A stretch of 63,879 bases of DNA, counting the filler. It is 7 parts of 7 records of this genome, joined end to end, with 100 filler letters (N's around TTAATTAATTAA, not from the genome) between each part and the next. Parts side by side here need not be neighbours in the genome. Positions count along the whole stretch, not along the records: positions 35,670 to 45,272 come from SRR31156797_33800; 6 more parts are not named here. One strand, 5' to 3'. Numbering within the stretch: position 1 is the first letter of the stretch; every line of letters begins with the position of its first letter. Below are positions 3,247 to 44,684 of the stretch, in pieces. The notes below the pieces were generated by a model. It had not been told where the DNA came from. It did not search any database and saw only the letters and a list, made by a program, of their open reading frames with translations. The position numbers and the translations under genes are program-made.

Positions 3247-4383
3247 ATGACAACGGATTCTTTTAATAAGCTTAAGTCCGATGTTATGGATAAAAGTCTG
3301 TGTGCTCGCTGCGGCGCCTGTGCCGGGCTTTGTCCCCACTTCGGGTGGCATCAGGACAGAATTGCGCCCTTACATGACTGCTCAGAGCAATCGGGCGCCT
3401 GCGAGGAAGCCTGCCCACGCACCCCCTGCAATCCCGCCACCCTGGCCAGGGCCATGGCGCCGCCGGAAATCATTACCCCGGAAATGGGTCCGGTGCGCAA
3501 CTTATGGGTAACCCGGGCTTGCGATCCGGAGATCAGAAGCCGGGGCCAACATGGCGGTACGGTCACCGCTCTGGCCAACCTCGCCCTGGAGCAGGGGCTG
3601 GTGGATGCCTGGGTCATGGCCGGTCCGGACGGGTCGCTGGGCGGAGTTCCGACTCTATGCCGCACCAAGGCCCAGGTGGATGCCTGCGCCGGTACCAAGT
3701 TGACGTCGGTACCCATATTGGCGGGTTTTCTGGAGGCTGCCCATGGGGAATCAGGGAGATTGGGGGTGGTCGCCACCCCCTGCCAGTGCCTCGCTTTGGC
3801 CAAGATTAAGGCATCGGATCACCCGCGTTTGCAGCGGGCGGCTCAATGCCTGACGCTGGTAGTGGGGCTGTTCTGCGGTTGGACCTTCGACCGCCGTGAA
3901 CTCCGTCAAGCCCTTTCCGAAAAGCTGGACTTGCCTTCAATTACCGCCTTGGATATCCCCCCCAGCCACTACCAGACCCTTGAGACCACCACTCCTGAGG
4001 GGATGACGTCCGTGCCCCTGTCCCAAGTGAGTGGTGCCGTCCGGTCTGCCTGTGGTTACTGCTTTGATCTCACCGCCGAATTGGCCGACATTTCAGTGGG
4101 TTCTGCGCGCTTGCCCCTGGGTTGGCAAGAGGCCCGGCATTGGAATCAGACCGTGGTGCGCTCCCGGGCGGGGCAGGATCTGATGGATCGGGCTGAAACG
4201 GCGGGATTTCTTACCCTGCAAGAGCCCCCTGGGGGCGCCCTGGAAAAACTCAAAACGGCGGCGGCCAAAAAGAAACGGACGGCGCGTCGGAACTTGGCGG
4301 AACTTAGTGGAAACCCGGACGATTTGCTCTATTTGCCGACGGAGTTCGGCAAAATCGCGTCGTCCTTTAGATATGGAGCGTAA
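3247..4383 (+). CDS. Coenzyme F420 hydrogenase/dehydrogenase beta subunit (FrhB/FdhB)-like Fe-S flavoprotein
   Basis: N-terminal CARCGACAGLCP ferredoxin motif; GQHGGTVTAL, VATPCQ, GLFC and CGYCFDLTAELADISVG are FrhB-family motifs. Confidence 0.85.
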   Translation: MTTDSFNKLKSDVMDKSLCARCGACAGLCPHFGWHQDRIAPLHDCSEQSGACEEACPRTPCNPATLARAMAPPEIITPEMGPVRNLWVTRACDPEIRSRGQHGGTVTALANLALEQGLVDAWVMAGPDGSLGGVPTLCRTKAQVDACAGTKLTSVPILAGFLEAAHGESGRLGVVATPCQCLALAKIKASDHPRLQRAAQCLTLVVGLFCGWTFDRRELRQALSEKLDLPSITALDIPPSHYQTLETTTPEGMTSVPLSQVSGAVRSACGYCFDLTAELADISVGSARLPLGWQEARHWNQTVVRSRAGQDLMDRAETAGFLTLQEPPGGALEKLKTAAAKKKRTARRNLAELSGNPDDLLYLPTEFGKIASSFRYGA

Positions 4384-4385
4384 AA

Positions 4386-6302
4386 ATGGTGCATCCCATT
4401 ACACAGGAAAGCCCCGGCCTCGTCATGCTTCTCATGGGCAATGAGGCCATCGCCCGCGGTGTGATTGAGGCCGGGGTCAGCATTGCGGCGGCCTACCCGG
4501 GCAACCCGTCTTCCGATATCGTGGACACGCTGGCCAAGGCCGGTAACGACCTTGCCATGCACGTGGAGTGGTCGGTTAATGAGAAAGTGGCGTTGGAAGT
4601 GGCGGCGGCGGCGGCCATGACCGGGCTGCGGGGCGTTGCCGCCATGAAGCAGAATGGTCTCAATGTGGCTTGCGACTTTCTGTTGAACCTCAACCTTTCC
4701 GGCGTACGCGGAGGCTTAGTGGTGGTGGTGTGCGACGACCCCAGCGGTATCTCCTCCACCAACGAGCAAGATACCCGCTTTTTCGCACGTATGGCCGAGT
4801 TGCCCCTGCTTGAGCCTTCCAGCTTCCAGGAGGCCAAGGACATGACAAAGGAGGCCTTTGAACTTTCGGAGGCGCTGGCTTTACCGGTGCTCCTGCACAG
4901 TGTGACCCGCTTGTCTCACGCCAGGGGTAACGTGGCATTGGGTCCCTTGCCGGGCCCAAGCCCCAAGCCCGGCTTCGACCGTTCGCGGCCCTTCATCAAC
5001 GTGCCGGCGCCGGCCAATGCTCACCGACGGCTCAAGGAAAGGATCGAACGGTGCCGCGATATTTTCGAAGGCTCGCCGCGCAATTGGTATCAGGGTCCGG
5101 ATCGGCCCGAAGTGATTCTGATTACCACCGGGGCCGGGCTGTTCTACTGCCTGGAGGGCATTGACGTCCTGGGCCTGGATGAGCGGGTGGGTGTGCTCAA
5201 GGTGGCCACCACCTTCCCTCTCCCCACCCAATTTTTGCTGAAGTATCTTAAAAGGGCGCCGCGAGTGGTTTTCGTTGAGGATGGCGCCCCGTTCCTGGAG
5301 TCCAGCGTCAAGGAGCTGTACGCCGAGCGTGCCGCCCTGTTGCCCGCGCTGGAATTCTTCGGCAAGGCGGACGCCAGTCTGCCCCAGGTGGGAGAACTCA
5401 ATCCGGACGTGATGATGGGTTTGTTGGCCGGGCTTCTCGAAACGCCGTATCAGACAAGGCCCGACAGCTACGACCGGGGCGTCAGAAAAACGGTCGGTGA
5501 GCTGGTTCCGGACCGGGACATGGCTTTTTGCGCGGGGTGCCCCCATCGGGCCACTTACTGGGCCATTAAACAGGCGCTGGCCCTGGATGGCCGTGACGGT
5601 TTCGTCTGTGGGGACATCGGTTGTTACGGCATGGGCAGCGGCCCCGCCGGTTGGTCCCAGATGGACACCATGCAGGCCATGGGCTCGGGCGCCGGCGTAG
5701 CGGCGGGCATGGGCCAGTTGACGGGCATGGGTCTTGACCAGCCGGTTGTGGCCATTTGCGGAGATTCCACCTTTTATCATAGCGCCCTGCCGGCCTTGAT
5801 CAATGCTCGCCAGCACGGTTCCAACTTTTTGTTCATTGTGCTGGACAATGACGCCACCGCCATGACCGGCTTCCAGCCCCATGCCGGCTTGGGAATCACC
5901 GCCACCGGCCGGCCCGCCCCGCGTATGGCCATAGGGGCGTTATGCAGGGCCATGGGCTACCAAGTTGAAACGTGCGATCCCTACAATCTGAATGTTACCA
6001 CTCGCGCCATCATGGGGGGGTTGGAGCAGGAAGGAGCCAAGGTACTGATATTGAAACGTTCCTGCGCCCTGGTGGCGACCAAGCAAGGGGCGCCGGCCGG
6101 GCGGGTCACCCTGGATGCGGAGCTCTGTATCGGCGCGGACTGCGGCTGTAACCGCATGTGCACCTCGGCGTTCCGATGCCCGGGTCTTGCCTGGGATCCG
6201 GAGACGGGAAACGCCAGGATCGACGAGGCCATATGCACCGGTTGCGGTGTCTGTGTCCAGATATGCCCCACCGGGGCCCTGAAAGTGGAGGTTGCATCAT
6301 GA
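4386..6302 (+). CDS. iorA: Indolepyruvate:ferredoxin oxidoreductase alpha subunit
   Basis: MGNEAIARG, YPGNPSSDI, NEKVALE, FCAGCPHR, GDIGCY, TPP motif GDSTF...LDNDATAMTG, and C-terminal ferredoxin. Confidence 0.93.
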   Translation: MVHPITQESPGLVMLLMGNEAIARGVIEAGVSIAAAYPGNPSSDIVDTLAKAGNDLAMHVEWSVNEKVALEVAAAAAMTGLRGVAAMKQNGLNVACDFLLNLNLSGVRGGLVVVVCDDPSGISSTNEQDTRFFARMAELPLLEPSSFQEAKDMTKEAFELSEALALPVLLHSVTRLSHARGNVALGPLPGPSPKPGFDRSRPFINVPAPANAHRRLKERIERCRDIFEGSPRNWYQGPDRPEVILITTGAGLFYCLEGIDVLGLDERVGVLKVATTFPLPTQFLLKYLKRAPRVVFVEDGAPFLESSVKELYAERAALLPALEFFGKADASLPQVGELNPDVMMGLLAGLLETPYQTRPDSYDRGVRKTVGELVPDRDMAFCAGCPHRATYWAIKQALALDGRDGFVCGDIGCYGMGSGPAGWSQMDTMQAMGSGAGVAAGMGQLTGMGLDQPVVAICGDSTFYHSALPALINARQHGSNFLFIVLDNDATAMTGFQPHAGLGITATGRPAPRMAIGALCRAMGYQVETCDPYNLNVTTRAIMGGLEQEGAKVLILKRSCALVATKQGAPAGRVTLDAELCIGADCGCNRMCTSAFRCPGLAWDPETGNARIDEAICTGCGVCVQICPTGALKVEVAS

Positions 6303-6910
6303 TAGCCAACGATCCTATAAACGTTGTGATTTGCGGAGTGGGGGGGCAGGGAAACGTGCTGGCCTCCTTGATCCTGGGACGATATTTCGTGGACCGGGGC
6401 ATGAAGGTGACCATCGGCGAGACCTACGGCGTCTCCCAGCGGGGCGGCGCGGTCATGAGCCAGTTGCGTATCTCGAAAAGCCGTCAACCCGCCCCCCTGA
6501 TGCCTTCGGCCCAAGCCCATCTGGTGGTGGCCCTGGAGCCGGTGGAGGGTTTGCGCATGCTGGCGCAATTCGGCAATCCCCATGTGTCTCTGCTGACCAA
6601 CACCAGACCCTTGCTCCCCATGTCGGTGCTGGCCGGAGAGCGGGAATACCCCGGGGTCTCCTTGGTGATGGAGCGTATGCGCCGGTACAGTCAGGCCCTG
6701 TGGAGGGTGGACGCAACCGAGATCGCCCTGGGGCTGGGGGGAGCCATCCTGGCCAACATTGTCATGCTGGGGGCCCTGCAGGCCACCGGCTTGTTGCCCC
6801 TGGAGGAGGCGGGCATGCTCCGGGCCTTGGAGGCTTCATTACCGGCGCCACGGCTGGAGAAGAATCTACGGGCTTTTGCCCGGGGCCGCCGGGCCGTGGA
6901 GAGGTATTAA
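6299..6910 (+). CDS. iorB: Indolepyruvate:ferredoxin oxidoreductase beta subunit
   Basis: GVGGQGNVLAS, ETYGVSQRGGAV, ANIVMLGA; ATG at 6299 overlaps the iorA stop (ATGA). Confidence 0.93.
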   Translation: MIANDPINVVICGVGGQGNVLASLILGRYFVDRGMKVTIGETYGVSQRGGAVMSQLRISKSRQPAPLMPSAQAHLVVALEPVEGLRMLAQFGNPHVSLLTNTRPLLPMSVLAGEREYPGVSLVMERMRRYSQALWRVDATEIALGLGGAILANIVMLGALQATGLLPLEEAGMLRALEASLPAPRLEKNLRAFARGRRAVERY

Positions 6911-37471: not shown

Positions 37472-40060
37472 TTACTCCCGTACATCTTTTGCGGGGTTAA
37501 GAAAATCTCTACTCACCTTATCTTGAAAAATTGATACCCGATCAAGCACATTTCTGAGATTCTCTTGCTCTACTTGAGTTAATTCATCTAGTACCAGAAA
37601 GTCATTTACTTTTCTTAGATCGGTGTATTCAATTATCTGGTTCATAAATCGTAAGTTCCAGATATGATCAAATAAATAGGCCATCTCCCGGTAATCTCGT
37701 CGGGAGATATCTCCCCACTGTGTTAATCTCTTCAATCTGGCAACTGTATTAGCTTCTCTAATGTCGTATTTCAGAGCATAGATTCTACAAAAAATTTCCA
37801 TGGGTCTCAGGCATTCTTTCAAATTAACTGAACGCGCTCCATCCTTGACCTCTGTCTTTATCTTACCCATCTTGTTTGTTGGCTGGGTATATGACAGGCA
37901 GTGATGGGCATAGTTGATAAAGAACTGTTCATGTATTCTGCTGGTTTCAAACACATGCTGTTGCAACTCATCAACCAGTTCTGCCATACCATAGGTTGAA
38001 CGAAGGTCGAAAAAAACGTTGGCCTCTAGAATTTTGTCAGGACTGGAGTTGATAATCCAGTTGCTGAAATTTTCCTTCCACTCACCCACAGACAAACACC
38101 ACTGAGGGTTGGTTGCCATGATAAGGCCTTCACAATACGAGTAGCCGGCTTGGTCTAGTCTCTTGCAGACTCGTTCAGCTAAGTGCAGAAAATATCGACG
38201 AACCGTTTCAAGCTCATCCTCCTCACAACTTTCAAAGACCAGGGCATTATCCTGATCAGAGAAAAGAGTCATATCGTGACGAGCGTTTGAACCCATTGAA
38301 ATGAAAGAAAAATGTACAGGCGGTGCACCAATCTCGGCAATAGTAAGGGTAATAAATTTATGTATTGCTGCATCATACGCAGCACCAATCACCCGACGCA
38401 AATTATCAGGCCGAGAGCCGGCATCAATCATAGTTCGGATTACATCCGGCAGCCGATCAAGGGCCTCGACAACGCCCCCCGAGGCTTCACTCTCTTCAAT
38501 AAGATCAACGATCTCACTGTTTATCCCACTATAATGAGTGATCTCCTTTTCAAAGCGGAAAGCACTGCCATACACTTTTCTGGTAATGGGTCGAAATGAG
38601 ACAACATATCCCTTTTTTTTCGAAAGAAATATTTTTGAAATAGAGAGTATGATATCAATTTCCTGTCCACTTTTGGTTTGTAGCTGTGCTTCAAATTCTC
38701 CTGATTCAGTCTCGCCATCGAAGAGGTTTGTACAATGCTGCCGGACAGGTGCGTTGATCGTGTTTTGCGGAAAAATCGTTCTCCAGATAGAATGATCGTG
38801 GAGTTCTTTGTCGCTATACCCTACCATACGTTTTAGTCGTATGTTTGAGTAGATAATAGCCCCCTCGGCTACAAGGAGATACCCCTCGTTGGACGTTTCG
38901 ACCAATGCACGATATCTGTCTTTCGCCTCATGAAGAAGGATTTCCGCCTTTTTCTTTCTCGCCTCTGTCTTATGGCTCTGGTAGATGATATAACTCATGA
39001 CCAGAATGAGCCCGAAGGTAATCGACAGGAAGGTGATATAGAGATTACGCTTAAGTCTGGCAATTTCCTCCGTCACATCATTTACATAAACACCTGTACC
39101 GACAAGCCAGTTCCATTTAGGCACTCCCCGTACATATGAGAGTTTAGGCACTGAGGTGGCACTGTCATCCTTCCATTGCCACTGGTACTCGAGGTAGCCC
39201 TCAGCGTTGTTTTTTACCAACTCGACAAACTCTACAAACAGTTTCTTGCCGCTCTTGTTTTCAGTATCAGTATAGTTGCTTAAATCCGCACCAATCAGCT
39301 CCCCTCGATACGGGTGCATTATCAGGGTCGGGGTCATATCGGTTATGAAAAAATAATCTTTGTTTTTGGCTCCATAACGCATGGAGCCAATTTCTTTGAT
39401 CGCACGACCCTGTGCCTCTTGTACGGATATAAGCCCCTTATCGCTATCGGCAATATACTGTTCGGCAATGGAAACTGCTGAGGCAGTAAGCTCTTTGATC
39501 ATCCTCTTTTTCTGATTCATCATGGAGGACTCAATCTCCGGAACTACGACAAGGATAATTGAGGTAATAAAGAGGATAATTGAAACGACTGTAGGGATAA
39601 CAATTCGTGCCCCGAAACTGCTTATAAAATGATCAGGTCGCCTGTATTCATCATACTCCTTGACCCCTTTGAAGTACTCAGACAGTTCTTGTGGGTCCAG
39701 GATTGTATTCCAGTCATCCTGGTGTAAGGAATCATGATACTTTTCTGTAAACATGCCATTCATAAAATCCTTTCTTGACGGTATGTATCCGTTATAGTCA
39801 TCCCTAACGTGAGTCTCAAAAATTTTGTTAATATCGCTCTTCGAATACCTTTCCCCAAATTCCTGATATGCCTCGTTTAAGGCTTCCTGGCAGTGGCGAA
39901 ATTTACGGTGATCATATGGGTTAGAACTCAGTGTTCTACCGGTGCGTATATAGTGATCGAGTCCGTCATGTTCAAAAAAACCATCCAGCCATTTATGGAT
40001 ATCTGTGCCACGAATTCCGTAGAGTTTCTCTGTGCGGTCTGCATGATCTGATATTTTCAT
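37472..40060 (-). CDS. Membrane signalling protein: His-rich DUF6915-like domain, TM, sCache_2, TM, PAS, DUF294 nucleotidyltransferase and DUF294_C
   Basis: N-terminal H...IHKWLD...HRKFRH...HVRDDY.G.IPS; Cache MRYG..DYFF..MHP..YQW..KLSY..WNWLVGTGVY; PAS YRALVE; NT motif MGSNARHDMTLFSDQDN; GLIMATNPQWC; FFDLR. Confidence 0.85.
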   Translation of the reverse strand: MKISDHADRTEKLYGIRGTDIHKWLDGFFEHDGLDHYIRTGRTLSSNPYDHRKFRHCQEALNEAYQEFGERYSKSDINKIFETHVRDDYNGYIPSRKDFMNGMFTEKYHDSLHQDDWNTILDPQELSEYFKGVKEYDEYRRPDHFISSFGARIVIPTVVSIILFITSIILVVVPEIESSMMNQKKRMIKELTASAVSIAEQYIADSDKGLISVQEAQGRAIKEIGSMRYGAKNKDYFFITDMTPTLIMHPYRGELIGADLSNYTDTENKSGKKLFVEFVELVKNNAEGYLEYQWQWKDDSATSVPKLSYVRGVPKWNWLVGTGVYVNDVTEEIARLKRNLYITFLSITFGLILVMSYIIYQSHKTEARKKKAEILLHEAKDRYRALVETSNEGYLLVAEGAIIYSNIRLKRMVGYSDKELHDHSIWRTIFPQNTINAPVRQHCTNLFDGETESGEFEAQLQTKSGQEIDIILSISKIFLSKKKGYVVSFRPITRKVYGSAFRFEKEITHYSGINSEIVDLIEESEASGGVVEALDRLPDVIRTMIDAGSRPDNLRRVIGAAYDAAIHKFITLTIAEIGAPPVHFSFISMGSNARHDMTLFSDQDNALVFESCEEDELETVRRYFLHLAERVCKRLDQAGYSYCEGLIMATNPQWCLSVGEWKENFSNWIINSSPDKILEANVFFDLRSTYGMAELVDELQQHVFETSRIHEQFFINYAHHCLSYTQPTNKMGKIKTEVKDGARSVNLKECLRPMEIFCRIYALKYDIREANTVARLKRLTQWGDISRRDYREMAYLFDHIWNLRFMNQIIEYTDLRKVNDFLVLDELTQVEQENLRNVLDRVSIFQDKVSRDFLNPAKDVRE

Positions 40061-40208: not shown

Positions 40209-40242
40209 AAAGCCGAAATACCTTTTTTTACGGTATTTCGGC
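40209..40242 (-). terminator. Intrinsic terminator after DUF3360 gene
   Basis: GCCGAAATACC-loop-GGTATTTCGGC followed on the minus strand by TTTATTGTTTT. Confidence 0.7.
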
Positions 40243-40315: not shown

Positions 40316-41776
40316 TTATGGAGTAATAAGAGCAGGAATGCCTGGTAACTGACCAACTACAGCCAGCGAACCAACACAGACTATGAAGGCAAGGCCGGGG
40401 ATTAACAGTTTATCCTTAAATGAAAGCTTTTTTGTTCGGTCATGATCACCAATCAAGCCAAGGTTGTCAAGAAGCATGGTGGTAGCCCAACCAAACACCG
40501 GATTGACGATGGCACAGGCGAAGATGCAAATCCCCGCACTGAGAGAATCTTTGTACTCCTTTACCATCTGCATGCCGGCTTCAAGAAGTGGCAGGAAAAC
40601 ACCTACGATAAGTGCCACTCGAAGGACAGGTTCCCACATGGCCAGATCCATTGGATAACCGATAACCGCTGTTGAAACACAGAGAAGACCAGTGAGCAGT
40701 GCGCCACCAGGAATAGGTCGTTTAGCAATCGCAGCGGGGATCATATACGTCCCCCATGAGGAAGCGAGGTTGCCGCCACCAAGAAATGACCCTATACCTT
40801 GGCGGATAGATGCCACAGTCATTGTATCATCAACATCCATTAAGACGCCTTTTGCGTCTTTTGGATAGTTGAGTTCTTGAAAGACACGGTGACCAAGGAA
40901 GTCAGGAGACCACATGGCAACAGCTAATAGGGCAAAAGGCGTTACAGCTATGAATTGGCTGAGATTGGGCCAGCCAAGCTTCCAGCCTGTGGTTTCACCC
41001 CACCAGTACAATGGGCTCATGTGAGGAAGACCAGGTGTTGTGGAAAACTGGAAATCAGCGCCAAGCAAAAAGGCCACAACACCAGCCACAATGGAGCAGA
41101 GAGGGATGGCAACCCAGCGAAGTCGCACCTTAGCAAGGTAGGCATAGATAAGCAGGGTTACGCTAATCACTGCAAATGAAATGTACCCTTGATCGGTTGA
41201 AGTAGACCAGTTTTCAAGCTTGTTAATTTGACTGATAAGCCCGACCGCGCCAAGATAAATGAGCAACCCTCCGCGAACGCCTATGCCGGTAAGTGTCATC
41301 AGTTTTGAACCACCTTTGGTGTAGGCCAGCACAAGACCAAATGCTGTCACCATGAGACCAAGAGCTAAGGGATGGCCACCTGCTGCCGCTATAAGTGGGA
41401 TGAGTGGAATCATCGGCCCATGGGTACCGGCCAGGTTGGCATTTGGGGTAAGGACGGCGGAAAAAAGGATAACAAAAACAGCTCCTGCAATAAGCAGTTC
41501 CCAGCGGACATTTTCTGCAACAAAGGCATCGTCTAAACCATACTGGGTTGCAAAAACAGCAACCATGGCGGTAACCATCACAACCTTACCAATTGTAGCT
41601 GCAAGCGCTGGAACCCAGTCTTCAATTTCAATGTTGTAATCGCGTATGGGAAGGTTTAAGCCCCAACGCTTAAAATTCATAATTTTGAGCTCATGATCGA
41701 GGTAATCAGATCTGCTCTCAAATTCAGCTGCCTTCTTGCGCAATTGTTGATAAAACTTTTTTGAATCTTTAGCCAT
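40316..41776 (-). CDS. DUF3360 family multi-pass membrane protein (putative transporter)
   Basis: YLDHELKIM..KRWGLNLP.RDY.IE.EDWVPALAATIGKVVMV, ANLAGTHGP, WSPDFLGHRVFQ, SSWGTY; 12 or more TM. Family recognised from memory. Confidence 0.82.
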   Translation of the reverse strand: MAKDSKKFYQQLRKKAAEFESRSDYLDHELKIMNFKRWGLNLPIRDYNIEIEDWVPALAATIGKVVMVTAMVAVFATQYGLDDAFVAENVRWELLIAGAVFVILFSAVLTPNANLAGTHGPMIPLIPLIAAAGGHPLALGLMVTAFGLVLAYTKGGSKLMTLTGIGVRGGLLIYLGAVGLISQINKLENWSTSTDQGYISFAVISVTLLIYAYLAKVRLRWVAIPLCSIVAGVVAFLLGADFQFSTTPGLPHMSPLYWWGETTGWKLGWPNLSQFIAVTPFALLAVAMWSPDFLGHRVFQELNYPKDAKGVLMDVDDTMTVASIRQGIGSFLGGGNLASSWGTYMIPAAIAKRPIPGGALLTGLLCVSTAVIGYPMDLAMWEPVLRVALIVGVFLPLLEAGMQMVKEYKDSLSAGICIFACAIVNPVFGWATTMLLDNLGLIGDHDRTKKLSFKDKLLIPGLAFIVCVGSLAVVGQLPGIPALITP

Positions 41777-42130
41777 CTAGAATTTTACTCCATGTTGGTA
41801 AGTTTATGAAAGACGGGTCATTCGGATGCATCGAAGGTGTTGGCCATGCTGTGAAAATCTTTGCGGTGTCTTGAATGTAGCTGCTTGCACGGATTGTAAC
41901 GTACTGTCCTCAGGTGCTTCAGGGTCTATCTTCCTGATTTTCGAGTAGGAAGCGTTGAATTAAATGCTTTGGTAATAATGACTTGAAATCTGTTACTCTT
42001 TTTTACCGCTAAGGATGCGAGCAGCAATGGTGCTCGTTACCAAAATGTGCTGATTAGGATCAAATATTATCTGGCTGCCTGCAAGTGCTGACTCCTTGTT
42101 AATCGCCGGAAGTATTTATTGTTAGGGGGA

Positions 42131-42400
42131 ATCTGGGTAGAAGCACTGGCAGCCCAGCGCTCCCCCACAGATCCAGACGTGAAGATTTCCCTCATCCGGT
42201 TCCTTGGAATCCCCAGGCCAGCGTCTGAGAATTACCGGGCAGGTCTAACTCCACCCGGCGCATAACTCAGCTGCCCAGCTGATCAGGTTTGATGCAGTAT
42301 CCTCGGATGAGGTAGCGGGAACTTCTTACAAATCATAAGCTCGTAGTTGTTCCAAGTTATTACGCCCGCCACTACGTCTGCTCAATCAATACCTGAACCT
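42131..42400 (-). mobile_element. Group II intron 3' remnant (maturase C-terminus plus ribozyme domains V and VI)
   Basis: Minus strand encodes LSRRS.../GVITWNNYELMICKKFPLPHPRILHQT* (stop 42283). DV GAACCGGAT-GAGGGAAATCTTC-AC-GTCTGGATC at about 42170-42202. DVI GGGGGAGCGCTGG-GCTG-CCAGTGCTTCT(A)CCC, ending AGAT at 42131. Confidence 0.88.
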
Positions 42401-42827
42401 TGGCCCTCTAGCATAAGCATAACCTCACCCGTTTTTGTGATTCACATATCTTTTGCTTTATTTACATTTTGAACTGCAAAAAAGGTTATTAAACCGAATA
42501 GAATGAATACTAACAGGATGAGACGGAGCATTCGAATTTTTATACTAAGTTTTCCAAGTATTTTTAAGCCACTAGGTTAGCCGCATGGCTCTTGGTGTCT
42601 GCATATACAAGTACGCTCACCACTATCCGTTCTAAAGCATAACTGCTGATTCGAGTAGGCTAGTGCGACACGCGTGCCAGAATGTTAGAAAAGCGGCAAG
42701 TGTATTTATATCAAAATGTTATAGGATTACTTTGAAGATGCGGGCTAAGATATGGCTTGGGCAAATTCTGGAATACAAGACAGAGAGAGCCCAATATTCT
42801 GGATTTCTGGATTGGGTGTATATCTGA

Positions 42828-43059
42828 TTGGCATCTCTGAAACAGACTCACCCCAAATACACATGGCGAGAGTGGTCGATTGTCCCCGCCTACCAGCAAG
42901 CCATGCAGGGTGACTACACATTAGTTAAAGAGTTGCAAGAAGTACTTGGCTGTCCATATGGTGAGCAATCACAAAAAGTCGAAAATAAATACTATCGTCT
43001 AAAAACTAAGTCCTTTTTTTAATAGAGGTGGCGTGTCGCGCTATAGCTGTTCATCTTGA
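42828..43059 (+). pseudogene. selO: SelO/YdiU protein adenylyltransferase C-terminal remnant, frameshifted
   Basis: KQTHPKYTWREW...AYQQAMQGDYTLVKELQEVL..PY, frameshift in a T-run at about 43014-43020, then NRGGVSRYSCSS*, the family's terminal CSS. Confidence 0.82.
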
Positions 43060-43108
43060 CTTTGAATAAAATTTGAAAAATAGGAATGAGGTTTGCTCAG
43101 CTGGGCAC

Positions 43109-43164
43109 GGCTAACAAGTCAATGTTGCCGGACTCGCTAACGTGCCTGATCCGCCACGTTAATG
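43109..43164 (+). other. Degenerate attC-like site
   Basis: GGCTAAC-AAGTCAATG...CTGAT-CCGCCAC-GTTAATG, 56 bp, imperfect pairing. Confidence 0.3.
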
Positions 43165-43491
43165 TTGCAATATCGAAGATCAGAACATCTTACCAGTGGC
43201 TCCATTTTACCTTATTATTGAGAATATAGGGTAATGGTCGCAAACGTGTAACCTAAACCGGATTCATGTTGTGAATCAAAACAGCGCTATTTAATTATCT
43301 CCAACCAGTAGGGATCAGGAGTATAGATTTTTTAGAAAAATTTCTGAACTTAAATTTTGAGCCTCAAATCATGATCTATAGACATGGACTCTCGTCTTGA
43401 TCAAACTTCAATATAGCTATGTTGACTTTGGTAAATAAATGGGTTGGGTGTCTCATTTTTTCTCTCTGTTTTCTAAGGTATAGCTCTCACC

Positions 43492-43821
43492 TCACAGAGA
43501 AATGTTATGCGTTTGATTAGTTGTTAGCCGAATTTGACTTCTATACATTTCTTGGTCACTTCTTAACACAACTATTTCATATGACCCTGCAGTTAGCCCG
43601 CTGATATAGTATCTCCCATCATCTCCTGTAAGCGAACGAGCTACACTCACTCCTCTATTGACCACTTCAACCCATAATGAAGAAGCAGGTCTGTTAGTTG
43701 ATCTCATAACAACCGTGCCAGTGAGATAAAGGGTTGATTGGGCCTTTGGCAGCGGCATATTATACGCAATAAAGCCGATGGATATGATAAGAAATAACCC
43801 TAATGATTTTGATATGTTCAT
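43492..43821 (-). CDS. Small exported carboxypeptidase-regulatory-like (transthyretin-fold) domain protein
   Basis: Signal peptide; LTGTVV...TGDDGRYYISGLTAGSYEI. Confidence 0.75.
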   Translation of the reverse strand: MNISKSLGLFLIISIGFIAYNMPLPKAQSTLYLTGTVVMRSTNRPASSLWVEVVNRGVSVARSLTGDDGRYYISGLTAGSYEIVVLRSDQEMYRSQIRLTTNQTHNISL

Positions 43822-43846
43822 TTGTATTATCCTCAGAGATTTTTAC

Positions 43847-44263
43847 CTACAAATCTTTACACCTTTCGTAGCTCAACAATGATTTTACGACCTCTACCTC
43901 TCCTGAGGACTCGTCTTTTGATATTAACACTCTTGATGCTTTACCCGATGTGATATTTCGAACGATGACCCAATACGATGTGTCCGGTATTTGCTGGAAA
44001 GTGAATCTGCCTTTGTCATCCGTAGTTGCCATGCGCTCACTTCCTGATGCGCGGATCAAGTAAACTTCTGCATTTTGCAGGGGATCATTTTCCCCTGAAG
44101 TAATTTTTCCGTTTATTGTACATTTTTCTGGCTGAAGCTGTGTAGCGTTATCTTTCCTGTCAAGATAAGGAACTATACCAATGAAAGCCACAACGATTGC
44201 AGTGGCAGCTGAAATGAGCGCAGTAATTATTACCACTTTAGGGGATGTACCATTTATTCCCAT
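43847..44263 (-). CDS. Membrane-anchored carboxypeptidase-regulatory-like domain protein
   Basis: N-terminal TM; INGKITS...PLQNAEVYL...TTDDKGRFTFQQIP; ATG 44263 after GGAG. Confidence 0.75.
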   Translation of the reverse strand: MGINGTSPKVVIITALISAATAIVVAFIGIVPYLDRKDNATQLQPEKCTINGKITSGENDPLQNAEVYLIRASGSERMATTDDKGRFTFQQIPDTSYWVIVRNITSGKASRVLISKDESSGEVEVVKSLLSYERCKDL

Positions 44264-44684
44264 ATGATTTACTCCATTTCTTTTGAGGAATCCGAAAATC
44301 AAACGGTTAGAGCAGAACTCTATCACCTAAAACAGACTAGTGAATCAGGTTATGAGATATCACCTTTTGCTAGTATTCCGAACCACCATACTTCCACTTG
44401 GTCAAGACTGATAGGAGGTATCATTACTTCGTTAACGTAGAATTCACAGCCTAGCTTCAGCAAGGCCGGCAGATTGGTTACTTTTGTTAATTCATTTTTT
44501 AATTACACACTACTGTTAGCTTACGAGATTATTATCTATTAAGAAAAAATGACAAAATACCATTGTTATCTTGTATTCAGGATTCTTTCCCCCTACACTT
44601 AATAACGATTATGTAAGTTGTATGTGATCTTATATTGACAAGGTATCAAATCTCTATATTTTCCATCCAAGCGGAGGAAGCGTA

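Follow-up and report, generated by a model that had tools for sequence, protein, structure and literature searches.

In GlnD, the HD domain is the uridylyl-removing part of the protein. The receptor described here resembles GlnD in having a Pol-beta-type nucleotidyltransferase, a helical domain of the KNTase_C clan and a His/Asp-rich domain, proposed here to reverse the transfer, within one polypeptide; the helical domain, DUF294_C, is given as a member of the Pfam KNTase_C clan in PMC3710099. The removing domain of GlnD is a true HD domain that follows the nucleotidyltransferase, whereas the N-terminal domain (N-domain) of the receptor in our window (the whole stretch of DNA analysed, 63,879 nucleotides) shows neither an HD motif nor a match to an HD profile, and fold searches gave no convincing match. 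Unlike in GlnD, it is also N-terminal, with two putative membrane passes and the Cache and PAS domains lying between it and the nucleotidyltransferase.

Soluble cNMP-CBS-DUF294 proteins are known together with an RNase_T-like gene, as described for PP_0354/PP_0353 in P. putida (PMC9927547). This pair and Pflu5625 of P. fluorescens are reported to belong to the CrbS/R (MxtR/ErdR) regulon (PMC5715377, PMC9927547, 10.64898/2026.09.07.749794). The likeness to PP_0354/PP_0353, as portrayed in these sources, lies in a DUF294 plus DUF294_C output beside carboxylate transporters (DUF485/ActP-type SSF) and in a small phosphoesterase-type partner gene. By the same accounts, proteins of the PP_0354 type are soluble, use cNMP and CBS domains as sensors and have a DEDDh exonuclease as partner, whereas the window receptor combines a membrane-bound Cache-PAS sensor with a DUF6915 domain and has no DEDDh gene beside it. 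The 2026 preprint calls the function of the soluble DUF294/exonuclease pair still open (10.64898/2026.09.07.749794).

Stand-alone DUF6915 proteins (PF21866, PHROG 8143), which occur in phages and bacteria (e.g., Paradiddles), are likewise helical and ≈100 residues long, and they share the H, HxWxD, HRxxRH and HxxxD residues with the window's N-domain. Unlike these proteins, the window copy is fused ahead of a membrane receptor, reaches only a family-threshold score and carries an extra conserved tail, DDYxGYxPxxxDF...KYH. Our literature searches found no paper on DUF6915 or PF21866.

Domain Organization of the Receptor and Its Neighborhood

The receptor gene (37472..40060) encodes 862 aa according to its ORF, translation and Pfam architecture and lies on the minus strand, as do all features given below. 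Its Pfam domains and membrane segments follow the order DUF6915-like domain, TM1, sCache_2, TM2, PAS, DUF294 nucleotidyltransferase and DUF294_C, and 33 homologs have the same domain architecture. The N-terminal DUF6915-like domain, rich in His, Asp and Arg, covers aa 1–110 (39731..40060) as judged from PF21866, phrog_8143 and conservation. A putative TM1 at about aa 151–176 (39533..39610) was read by eye from the translation, and this stretch stays hydrophobic across the homologs in alignment A1. It is followed by an extracytoplasmic sCache_2/dCache_2 sensor identified with Pfam (PF17200, E 9.4e-33; PF08269, E 1.3e-33) at about aa 180–335, or 175–350 at its widest (39056..39523), and by a putative, hydrophobic TM2 at about aa 340–362 (38975..39043), also read by eye from the translation. 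The N-domain thus sits ahead of the hydrophobic stretch, as had been claimed from the sequence alone, and ahead of the Cache domain, and the domain layout, read by eye, places it putatively in the cytoplasm.

The cytoplasmic PAS domain spans aa 382–493 (38582..38917; Pfam PAS_9/PAS; NCBIfam TIGR00229, 54 bits). The output consists of the DUF294 Pol-beta-type nucleotidyltransferase at aa 536–674 (38039..38455; PF03445, E 4.9e-44) and DUF294_C, its helical substrate-binding domain, at aa 712–853 (37502..37927; PF10335, E 7.6e-29). The nucleotidyltransferase motif G590-S591 plus D602-x-D604 is intact and all four residues are invariant in alignment A1. With both domains and the G-S...D-x-D motif present, the protein is a DUF294 nucleotidyltransferase of the COG2905 type.

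Upstream of the receptor, in the same direction, lies the gene of a DUF3360 membrane protein of 486 aa (40316..41776; PF11840, 850 bits), which is presumed to be a transporter and adjoins the receptor gene in 31 of 80 genome loci. A terminator-like hairpin with an 11-bp stem and a U-rich tail after it is found between the two genes (40212..40242). Strand folding gave −24.4 kcal/mol (z −5.5), with none of 200 shuffles as good; the consensus terminator scan did not list this hairpin, which has a 9-nt loop.

Kinship With DUF6915 and Conserved Residues

A spaced set of His and Asp motifs had been noted at 39740–40060 in the sequence-only reading. All of the quoted motifs are present, within residues 1–107: H6, IHKWLD (21–26), HRKFRH (51–56) and HVRDDYNGYIPSRKDF (84–99). 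Counted from the translation, His makes up 8 of the first 110 residues.

The same reading had assigned the pattern to DUF6915, and a Pfam search together with PHROG and the ESM Atlas agrees with it. Residues 1–150 alone scored 31.3 bits with PF21866 (E 2.3e-7), above the cutoff of 27, and in the full-length protein the match scored 26.0 bits, just below the cutoff, so that the Pfam assignment is borderline. PHROG 8143 matched the N-domain with E 1.1e-4, and DUF6915 clusters accounted for 29 of the 30 feature hits in the ESM Atlas, mostly viral (score 0.95). The best fold hit in BFVD was a DUF6915 protein from Streptomyces phage Paradiddles, a weak match (E 0.12, prob 0.93; TM 0.40/0.47, rmsd 13.8). 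By sequence kinship the N-domain is a divergent member of the mostly phage-borne DUF6915 family. No match to the N-domain was found in the plasmid collection, and a profile search against PDB sequences returned only chance matches, to ribosomal protein L29. A profile made from alignment A3 hit a single genome among 351 sampled in the G004 phylum and 2 among 401 sampled in the G001 phylum, the center genome being among the hits in both cases.

In 14 full-length homologs, 26 positions of the N-domain are invariant. H6, H22, D26, R52, H56, H84 and D88 are also invariant in a set of 21 sequences that takes in distant stand-alone proteins of 85–180 aa and has a mean column identity of 22%. Given the 26 invariant positions and seven residues kept at this level of identity, the pattern goes beyond chance. 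The conserved set as a whole comprises H6, H22, W24, D26, H51, R52, R55, H56, H84 and D88 plus the tail YxGYxPxxxDF...YH. H51 is not universal and is replaced by N in P0059. We infer that the invariant His and Asp residues and the two adjacent Arg residues would fit a metal plus phosphate site.

An AF2 model of the N-domain is all-alpha with a mean pLDDT of 83. The small size of the domain (only ∼110 residues) and its all-helical make-up were counted against a role as an eraser. The earlier suggestion of an HD-like domain found no support in Pfam, in profile-profile comparison or in fold searches. No HD Pfam hit was obtained at E ≤ 1, comparison of alignment A2 with 11 aligned HD sequences in hhalign reached a probability of 2.2%, and conservation falls on the pairs H22-x3-D26 and H84-x3-D88, not on an HD doublet. 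The N-domain likewise matched no other phosphoesterase Pfam profile and gave no convincing fold match, and no similarity to a known hydrolase was found.

Recurrence of the Fusion

The N-domain, Cache, PAS and DUF294 domains occur in this order in 74 of 80 genome loci spread over many phyla. Five of the remaining six loci are cut by contig ends and one (L077) is aberrant. Of the 51 metagenome loci, 30 contain complete fused genes and 9 more contain cut ones. The fusion is thus not a chimera of a single assembly, a concern raised when the sequence was first read. All of the ten long representatives with an N-domain are Cache-PAS-(CBS)-DUF294 proteins, whole or truncated, and neither these nor the genome and metagenome loci showed the N-domain joined to a kinase, GGDEF or MCP output. 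Since the locus searches used the narrower alignments A4 and A8, whose patterns favor the fused family, stand-alone forms are under-sampled.

The fused receptor is the sole DUF294 gene in four of the five whole genomes checked. Among 151 Desulfobacterota genomes sampled, 57 gave receptor-like DUF294 hits, and the best 120 of 2322 homologs of a DUF6915-less paralog are plain Cache-PAS-CBS-DUF294 proteins only.

Split Form and Partner Genes

One metagenome locus (L090) has the two parts as separate genes. Its Cache-PAS-CBS-DUF294 receptor lacks the N-domain (3463–6000) and has TAG as its stop codon, directly after which comes the ATG of a stand-alone homolog of 111 aa (6001–6336). This small protein is 47% identical to the window's N-domain and matches PF21866 with 25.2 bits. 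Both genes lie within a DUF485-SSF operon.

We compared the same slot in seven DUF6915-less Cache-DUF294 receptors from five Desulfobacterota genomes. Three of them (L168, L169, and L170) have a downstream, start/stop-overlapping Metallophos gene (PF00149, calcineurin-like) coding for 244–260 aa. These three resemble the fused family in receptor type and transporter neighborhood, and their Metallophos partner directly after the receptor occupies the slot of the stand-alone DUF6915 gene in L090. The partners have a recognized phosphoesterase fold and are longer than the DUF6915 domain, which has 110 aa and is an N-terminal fusion in the window. The other four of the seven receptors, as well as two Desulfobacter paralogs flanking a fused gene, have no recognizable phosphoesterase neighbor, and a partner is therefore not obligatory.

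L071 encodes a soluble DUF294 protein paired with an RNase_T gene. Of the 133 loci searched, 131 of which have a DUF6915-like match, only 2 contain a DEDDh partner-like gene. Among 180 neighbor ORFs, no RNase_T, PHP or Metallophos family was found in the 25 most frequent families listed, so that no more than 2 of the 93 upstream ORFs and 1 of the 87 downstream ORFs could still be such genes. This tally omits 20 redundant Vibrio loci, loci without flanking ORFs, and eight loci in which the crude caller found no host ORF (L014, L033, L039, L051, L055, L073, L077, and L078).

In the two phages looked at, the DUF6915-like genes have tRNA, Ro-like and RNA-ligase genes around them, and their surroundings contain no nucleotidyltransferase gene. 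Genome G092 has a weak stand-alone hit that likewise does not adjoin a DUF294 gene.

Possible Functions of the N-Terminal Domain

Because all long proteins with the N-domain are DUF294 receptors, and because its stand-alone form takes the gene slot in which relatives have a phosphoesterase, it may undo the reaction of the nucleotidyltransferase. We tentatively propose that it could well be a metal-dependent phosphodiesterase dedicated to the DUF294 nucleotidyltransferase as its partner. The small all-alpha module would present a constellation of His, Asp and Arg residues (H6, H22-x3-D26, H51-R52-x2-R55-H56, and H84-x3-D88) and would hydrolyze the DUF294 product, which might be an NMP adduct on a protein or a nucleotide. 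Its role would then parallel that of the RNase_T-type exonucleases or calcineurin-like metallophosphoesterases of other DUF294 proteins. Metal binding, clustering of the residues in 3D, hydrolytic activity and the substrate are what we infer for the domain. The built-in "eraser" suggested from the sequence alone gains support from context (exclusivity, split operon and Metallophos slot); no match to a hydrolase profile and no convincing fold match accompanied it. A predicted complex of the nucleotidyltransferase part (aa 500–862), the N-domain (aa 1–135) and two Zn scored 0.00 without controls and speaks neither for nor against binding.

The genomic context fits an eraser, a substrate or a regulatory subunit alike. 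That the N-domain is restricted to DUF294 receptors and occurs in a split operon agrees equally well with an acceptor, adaptor or regulatory subunit, in which the N-domain would be the nucleotidylylated target (e.g., at a conserved Tyr or His) or would dock the target. GlnD and GlnE modify Tyr residues of small partner proteins, and five Tyr residues of the N-domain (Y49, Y72, Y89, Y92, and Y108) do not vary within the fused family; a domain without a hydrolase-like fold would also suit this role. Yet the invariants of the wider family are His, Asp and Arg rather than Tyr, the equivalent slot in relatives holds bona fide phosphoesterases, and there are phage and stand-alone members with no DUF294 gene nearby. 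We therefore regard such a role as somewhat unlikely.

The H...HxxxD...H...HxxxD pattern of the N-domain, which we take to resemble the H/HxxxE duplication of hemerythrin-type di-iron sites, could also point to a second, cytoplasmic input, i.e., a His/carboxylate site that senses metal, iron, O2 or redox state and tunes the nucleotidyltransferase. Hemerythrin-like sensor domains occur on chemoreceptors and cyclases, multi-input sensors are common, many hosts of the fused receptor are anaerobes or facultative organisms, and C57 is invariant in the fused family. This Cys is, however, not kept in stand-alone forms, and in hhalign the probability of a match between A2 and nine aligned hemerythrin sequences was 0.2%, while hemerythrin was absent from the fold hits shown. 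Generic sensor domains are promiscuous, whereas the N-domain is found with one output only, and a separate sensor-domain gene after the receptor, as in L090, would be unusual, which makes an input function improbable. A structural or dimerization cap that stabilizes the cytoplasmic face of the receptor dimer with no chemistry of its own would suit a small, helical domain with no known catalytic fold, but is very improbable, as neither seven invariant His, Asp and Arg residues across fused, stand-alone and phage-like forms at 22% mean column identity nor survival as a separate, translationally coupled gene (L090) would be expected of it.

If the phosphodiesterase reading is extended to the whole family, DUF6915 might be a previously unrecognized, minimal all-alpha metal-dependent phosphodiesterase fold that erases DUF294-made NMP adducts or nucleotide products in receptors. 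Stand-alone copies on phages and plasmids would apply this chemistry to nucleotide tags, signals or RNA ends of the host. We consider this wider proposal possible and on the doubtful side.

Implications for DUF294 and DUF6915

DUF294 nucleotidyltransferases are widespread and found in short-chain-carboxylate regulons, and the 2026 preprint still calls their chemistry and targets unknown (10.64898/2026.09.07.749794). The fusion and the split form tie the unstudied, largely phage-borne DUF6915 family to DUF294. The receptor also offers a compact system for the bench, since a domain of 110 residues with seven candidate ligands shares one polypeptide with its cognate transferase. If the N-domain does act as an eraser, it would define a new phosphoesterase fold, provide a writer/eraser logic for DUF294 systems and give a hint at the role of DUF6915 in phages.

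Domain layout and identity of the N-terminal domain

The receptor gene (37472–40060, minus strand; ORF and translation) encodes 862 aa. Pfam places a weak DUF6915 match at aa 47–107, followed by sCache_2/dCache_2 (aa 175–350), PAS (aa 382–493), DUF294 (aa 536–674, E 4.9e-44) and DUF294_C (aa 712–853). Two hydrophobic stretches, at about aa 151–176 and 340–362, flank the Cache domain and therefore the N-terminal domain (about aa 1–110) and the PAS-DUF294 part should both be cytoplasmic, stretches and topology being judged by eye. The Pol-beta-type catalytic site is intact, with G590, S591, D602 and D604 all invariant.

All His/Asp motifs quoted in the sequence-only reading are present in the receptor: H6, IHKWLD (21–26), HRKFRH (51–56) and HVRDDYNGYIPSRKDF (84–99). 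The DUF6915 profile PF21866 scores 31.3 bits against aa 1–150 alone (Pfam cutoff 27) and 26.0 bits against the full-length protein, and the match is therefore borderline. The N-terminal domain also matches phrog_8143 (E 1.1e-4), 29 of its 30 ESM Atlas feature neighbours are DUF6915 clusters (58–95% viral), and its best BFVD match is a Streptomyces phage DUF6915 protein, albeit a weak one (E 0.12, TM 0.40/0.47). These four lines agree. The kinship to DUF6915 put forward in the sequence-only reading is upheld, as is the description of the family as mostly stand-alone and often phage-borne. A literature search on DUF6915, PF21866, DUF6878, phrog_8143 and DUF3360 found no paper.

Alignment of 14 orthologues gave 26 invariant positions in the domain. 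When distant stand-alone forms were included (21 sequences, mean column identity 22%), H6, H22, D26, R52, H56, H84 and D88 were still invariant and G15, W24, H51 and F68 nearly so, H51 being replaced by Asn in one stand-alone protein. The AlphaFold2 model built on these 21 sequences is all-helical and confident (mean pLDDT 83, >90 over most of residues 1–30 and 51–100). The Pfam scan of the receptor matched neither an HD nor a hemerythrin profile, and hhalign against HD and hemerythrin alignments assembled from genome matches gave probabilities of 2.2% and 0.2%, respectively. The HD-like fold that had been suggested is thus unsupported.

Distribution of the fusion

The fusion of this domain to a Cache-PAS-DUF294 receptor is genuine and conserved. 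With aa 1–150 as query, a word-indexed search returned 33 proteins of 854–1016 aa with the same architecture, from sources including Vibrio maritimus, Desulfobacter, Cloacimonetes and Spirochaetales. Scanning 1.84 billion representatives in full gave only 52 clusters at E ≤ 1e-3, long proteins mixed with stand-alone ones of about 106–122 aa; each of the ten long representatives scanned was a Cache-PAS-(CBS)-DUF294 protein or a truncated piece of one. Species-representative genomes contain at least 80 loci, in Vibrio, Fibrobacterales, Planctomycetota, Kiritimatiellae/Verrucomicrobiota, Spirochaetales, Cloacimonadota, Desulfobacter, Delongbacteria and others. Local tblastn placed the N-terminal, Cache, PAS and nucleotidyltransferase domains in this order at 74 of the 80 genome loci listed; of the other six, five are truncated at a contig end and L077 is aberrant. 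The metagenome scan gave 51 loci: 30 complete fused genes, 9 fused genes interrupted by a contig end, 7 cut before the Cache domain, 2 with broken frames, 1 short partial match and 2 stand-alone ORFs (L081 and L090). The family is nonetheless rare (profile present in 1/351 and 2/401 sampled genomes in two phyla, centre genomes counted among the matches), and the fused receptor is the sole DUF294 gene in four of five whole genomes checked.

L077 (2003–2811) has the N-terminal domain in two pieces followed by PAS, without a Cache or nucleotidyltransferase domain, and the receptor lies in shifted frames in the metagenome loci L093 (6001–8543) and L127. Sequencing errors or decay of the gene could account for all three.

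Gene neighbourhood

The 180 ORFs lying no more than two genes from the receptor (46–49 loci) belong most often to SSF (13), DUF3360 (10), further DUF294 paralogues (7) and DUF485 (5); RNase_T, PHP and Metallophos are absent from the neighbour families listed. The DUF3360 gene (40316–41776, minus strand, in the window) is upstream of and co-directional with the receptor gene in the window, Desulfobacter and one Desulfobacterales MAG (L059, L064, L066, L068 and L071). The remaining 26 of the 31 loci with this gene have it divergent from the receptor, 24 of them from Vibrio and related gammaproteobacteria and two from Fibrobacterales (within L001–L031, L079 and L080). A strong hairpin between the two window genes (40212–40242, minus strand; −24.4 kcal/mol, z −5.5) is followed by a U-rich tail, and the genes may therefore be transcribed separately.

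Further along, a group II intron match (Rfam RF00029, domain V/VI; 42131–42204, minus strand; 41.1 bits, gathering score 40) sits in a 1.7-kb gap (41777–43491) with no ORF ≥120 aa, so it may represent an ORF-less intron or remnant. Two neighbouring small proteins (109 and 159 aa; 43492–44326, minus strand) each have a CarboxypepD_reg-like domain.

Desulfobacter (L059, L064, L068, L071; G001:C1 4838000–4859000) has three clustered Cache-PAS-DUF294 receptors, only one with DUF6915, together with a DUF3360 gene, a sigma-54 activator and a soluble (cNMP-)CBS-DUF294 gene. Only in L071 was the latter seen to adjoin, and face, an RNase_T gene. A search with this RNase_T protein over 133 loci, of which 131 have a DUF6915-like match, found relatives in only two, L054 and its own locus L071. 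The L071 pair parallels the published PP_0354/PP_0353 operon, the function of which is still open (PMC9927547 and 10.64898/2026.09.07.749794); Pflu5625 is a further soluble DUF294 relative (PMC5715377). Several loci with a 928-aa receptor form have soluble cNMP-CBS-DUF294 and SSF genes just upstream of the fused receptor (L125: 3183–5123 and 306–2087, both minus strand), with no RNase_T gene seen in the stretch covered.

Split genes and possible function

The metagenome locus L090 encodes, in order, DUF485, an SSF symporter, a Cache-PAS-CBS-DUF294 receptor that lacks the N-terminal domain (3463–6000) and a stand-alone homologue of that domain (6001–6336; 111 aa, 47% identity to the window domain, conserved residues kept), the ATG of which immediately follows the receptor TAG. 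The association with DUF294 receptors thus has a second gene architecture. Seven DUF6915-less Cache-DUF294 receptors from five Desulfobacterota genomes were examined; in three (L168–L170) a calcineurin-like metallophosphoesterase gene follows with start/stop overlap, and L168 and L169 also have an SSF transporter gene nearby. Coupling to a metallophosphoesterase is thus frequent among these receptors but not universal.

Because the N-terminal domain goes with a single output enzyme, persists as a separate coupled gene, occupies the phosphoesterase slot of relatives and retains the His/Asp set with its two adjacent arginines, we tentatively propose that it is a dedicated metal-dependent phosphodiesterase that would act on the DUF294 product; metal binding, catalysis and substrate are all inferred. 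Several observations speak against such an eraser. A partner gene is not obligatory for DUF294 receptors, since no recognisable one was found at four of the seven DUF6915-less receptors (L164–L167), nor a recognisable phosphoesterase partner at the two paralogues on either side of the fused gene in Desulfobacter. A weak stand-alone match in genome G092 has no DUF294 gene beside it. Finally, no nucleotidyltransferase is annotated near the DUF6915-like genes of Streptomyces phage Tomas (L182, 85932–86324), amid tRNA genes and a Ro-like RNA-binding protein gene, and Bacillus phage Chewbecca (L183, 77197–77610), adjoining RNA ligase and DNA ligase genes; these surroundings hint at RNA or nucleotide end chemistry.

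The genomic context fits an eraser, a substrate or a regulatory subunit alike and cannot tell them apart. That the domain is a substrate or adaptor of the nucleotidyltransferase seems to us rather unlikely, and we doubt, slightly more strongly, that it is a cytoplasmic metal or redox sensor. A purely structural cap is improbable. The sequence-only interpretation is thus partly supported: the DUF6915 kinship stands, the HD-like fold is unsupported, and the eraser role is plausible on context but unproven. The fused receptor would then be a variant of the DUF294-phosphoesterase pairing, itself known but unexplained.
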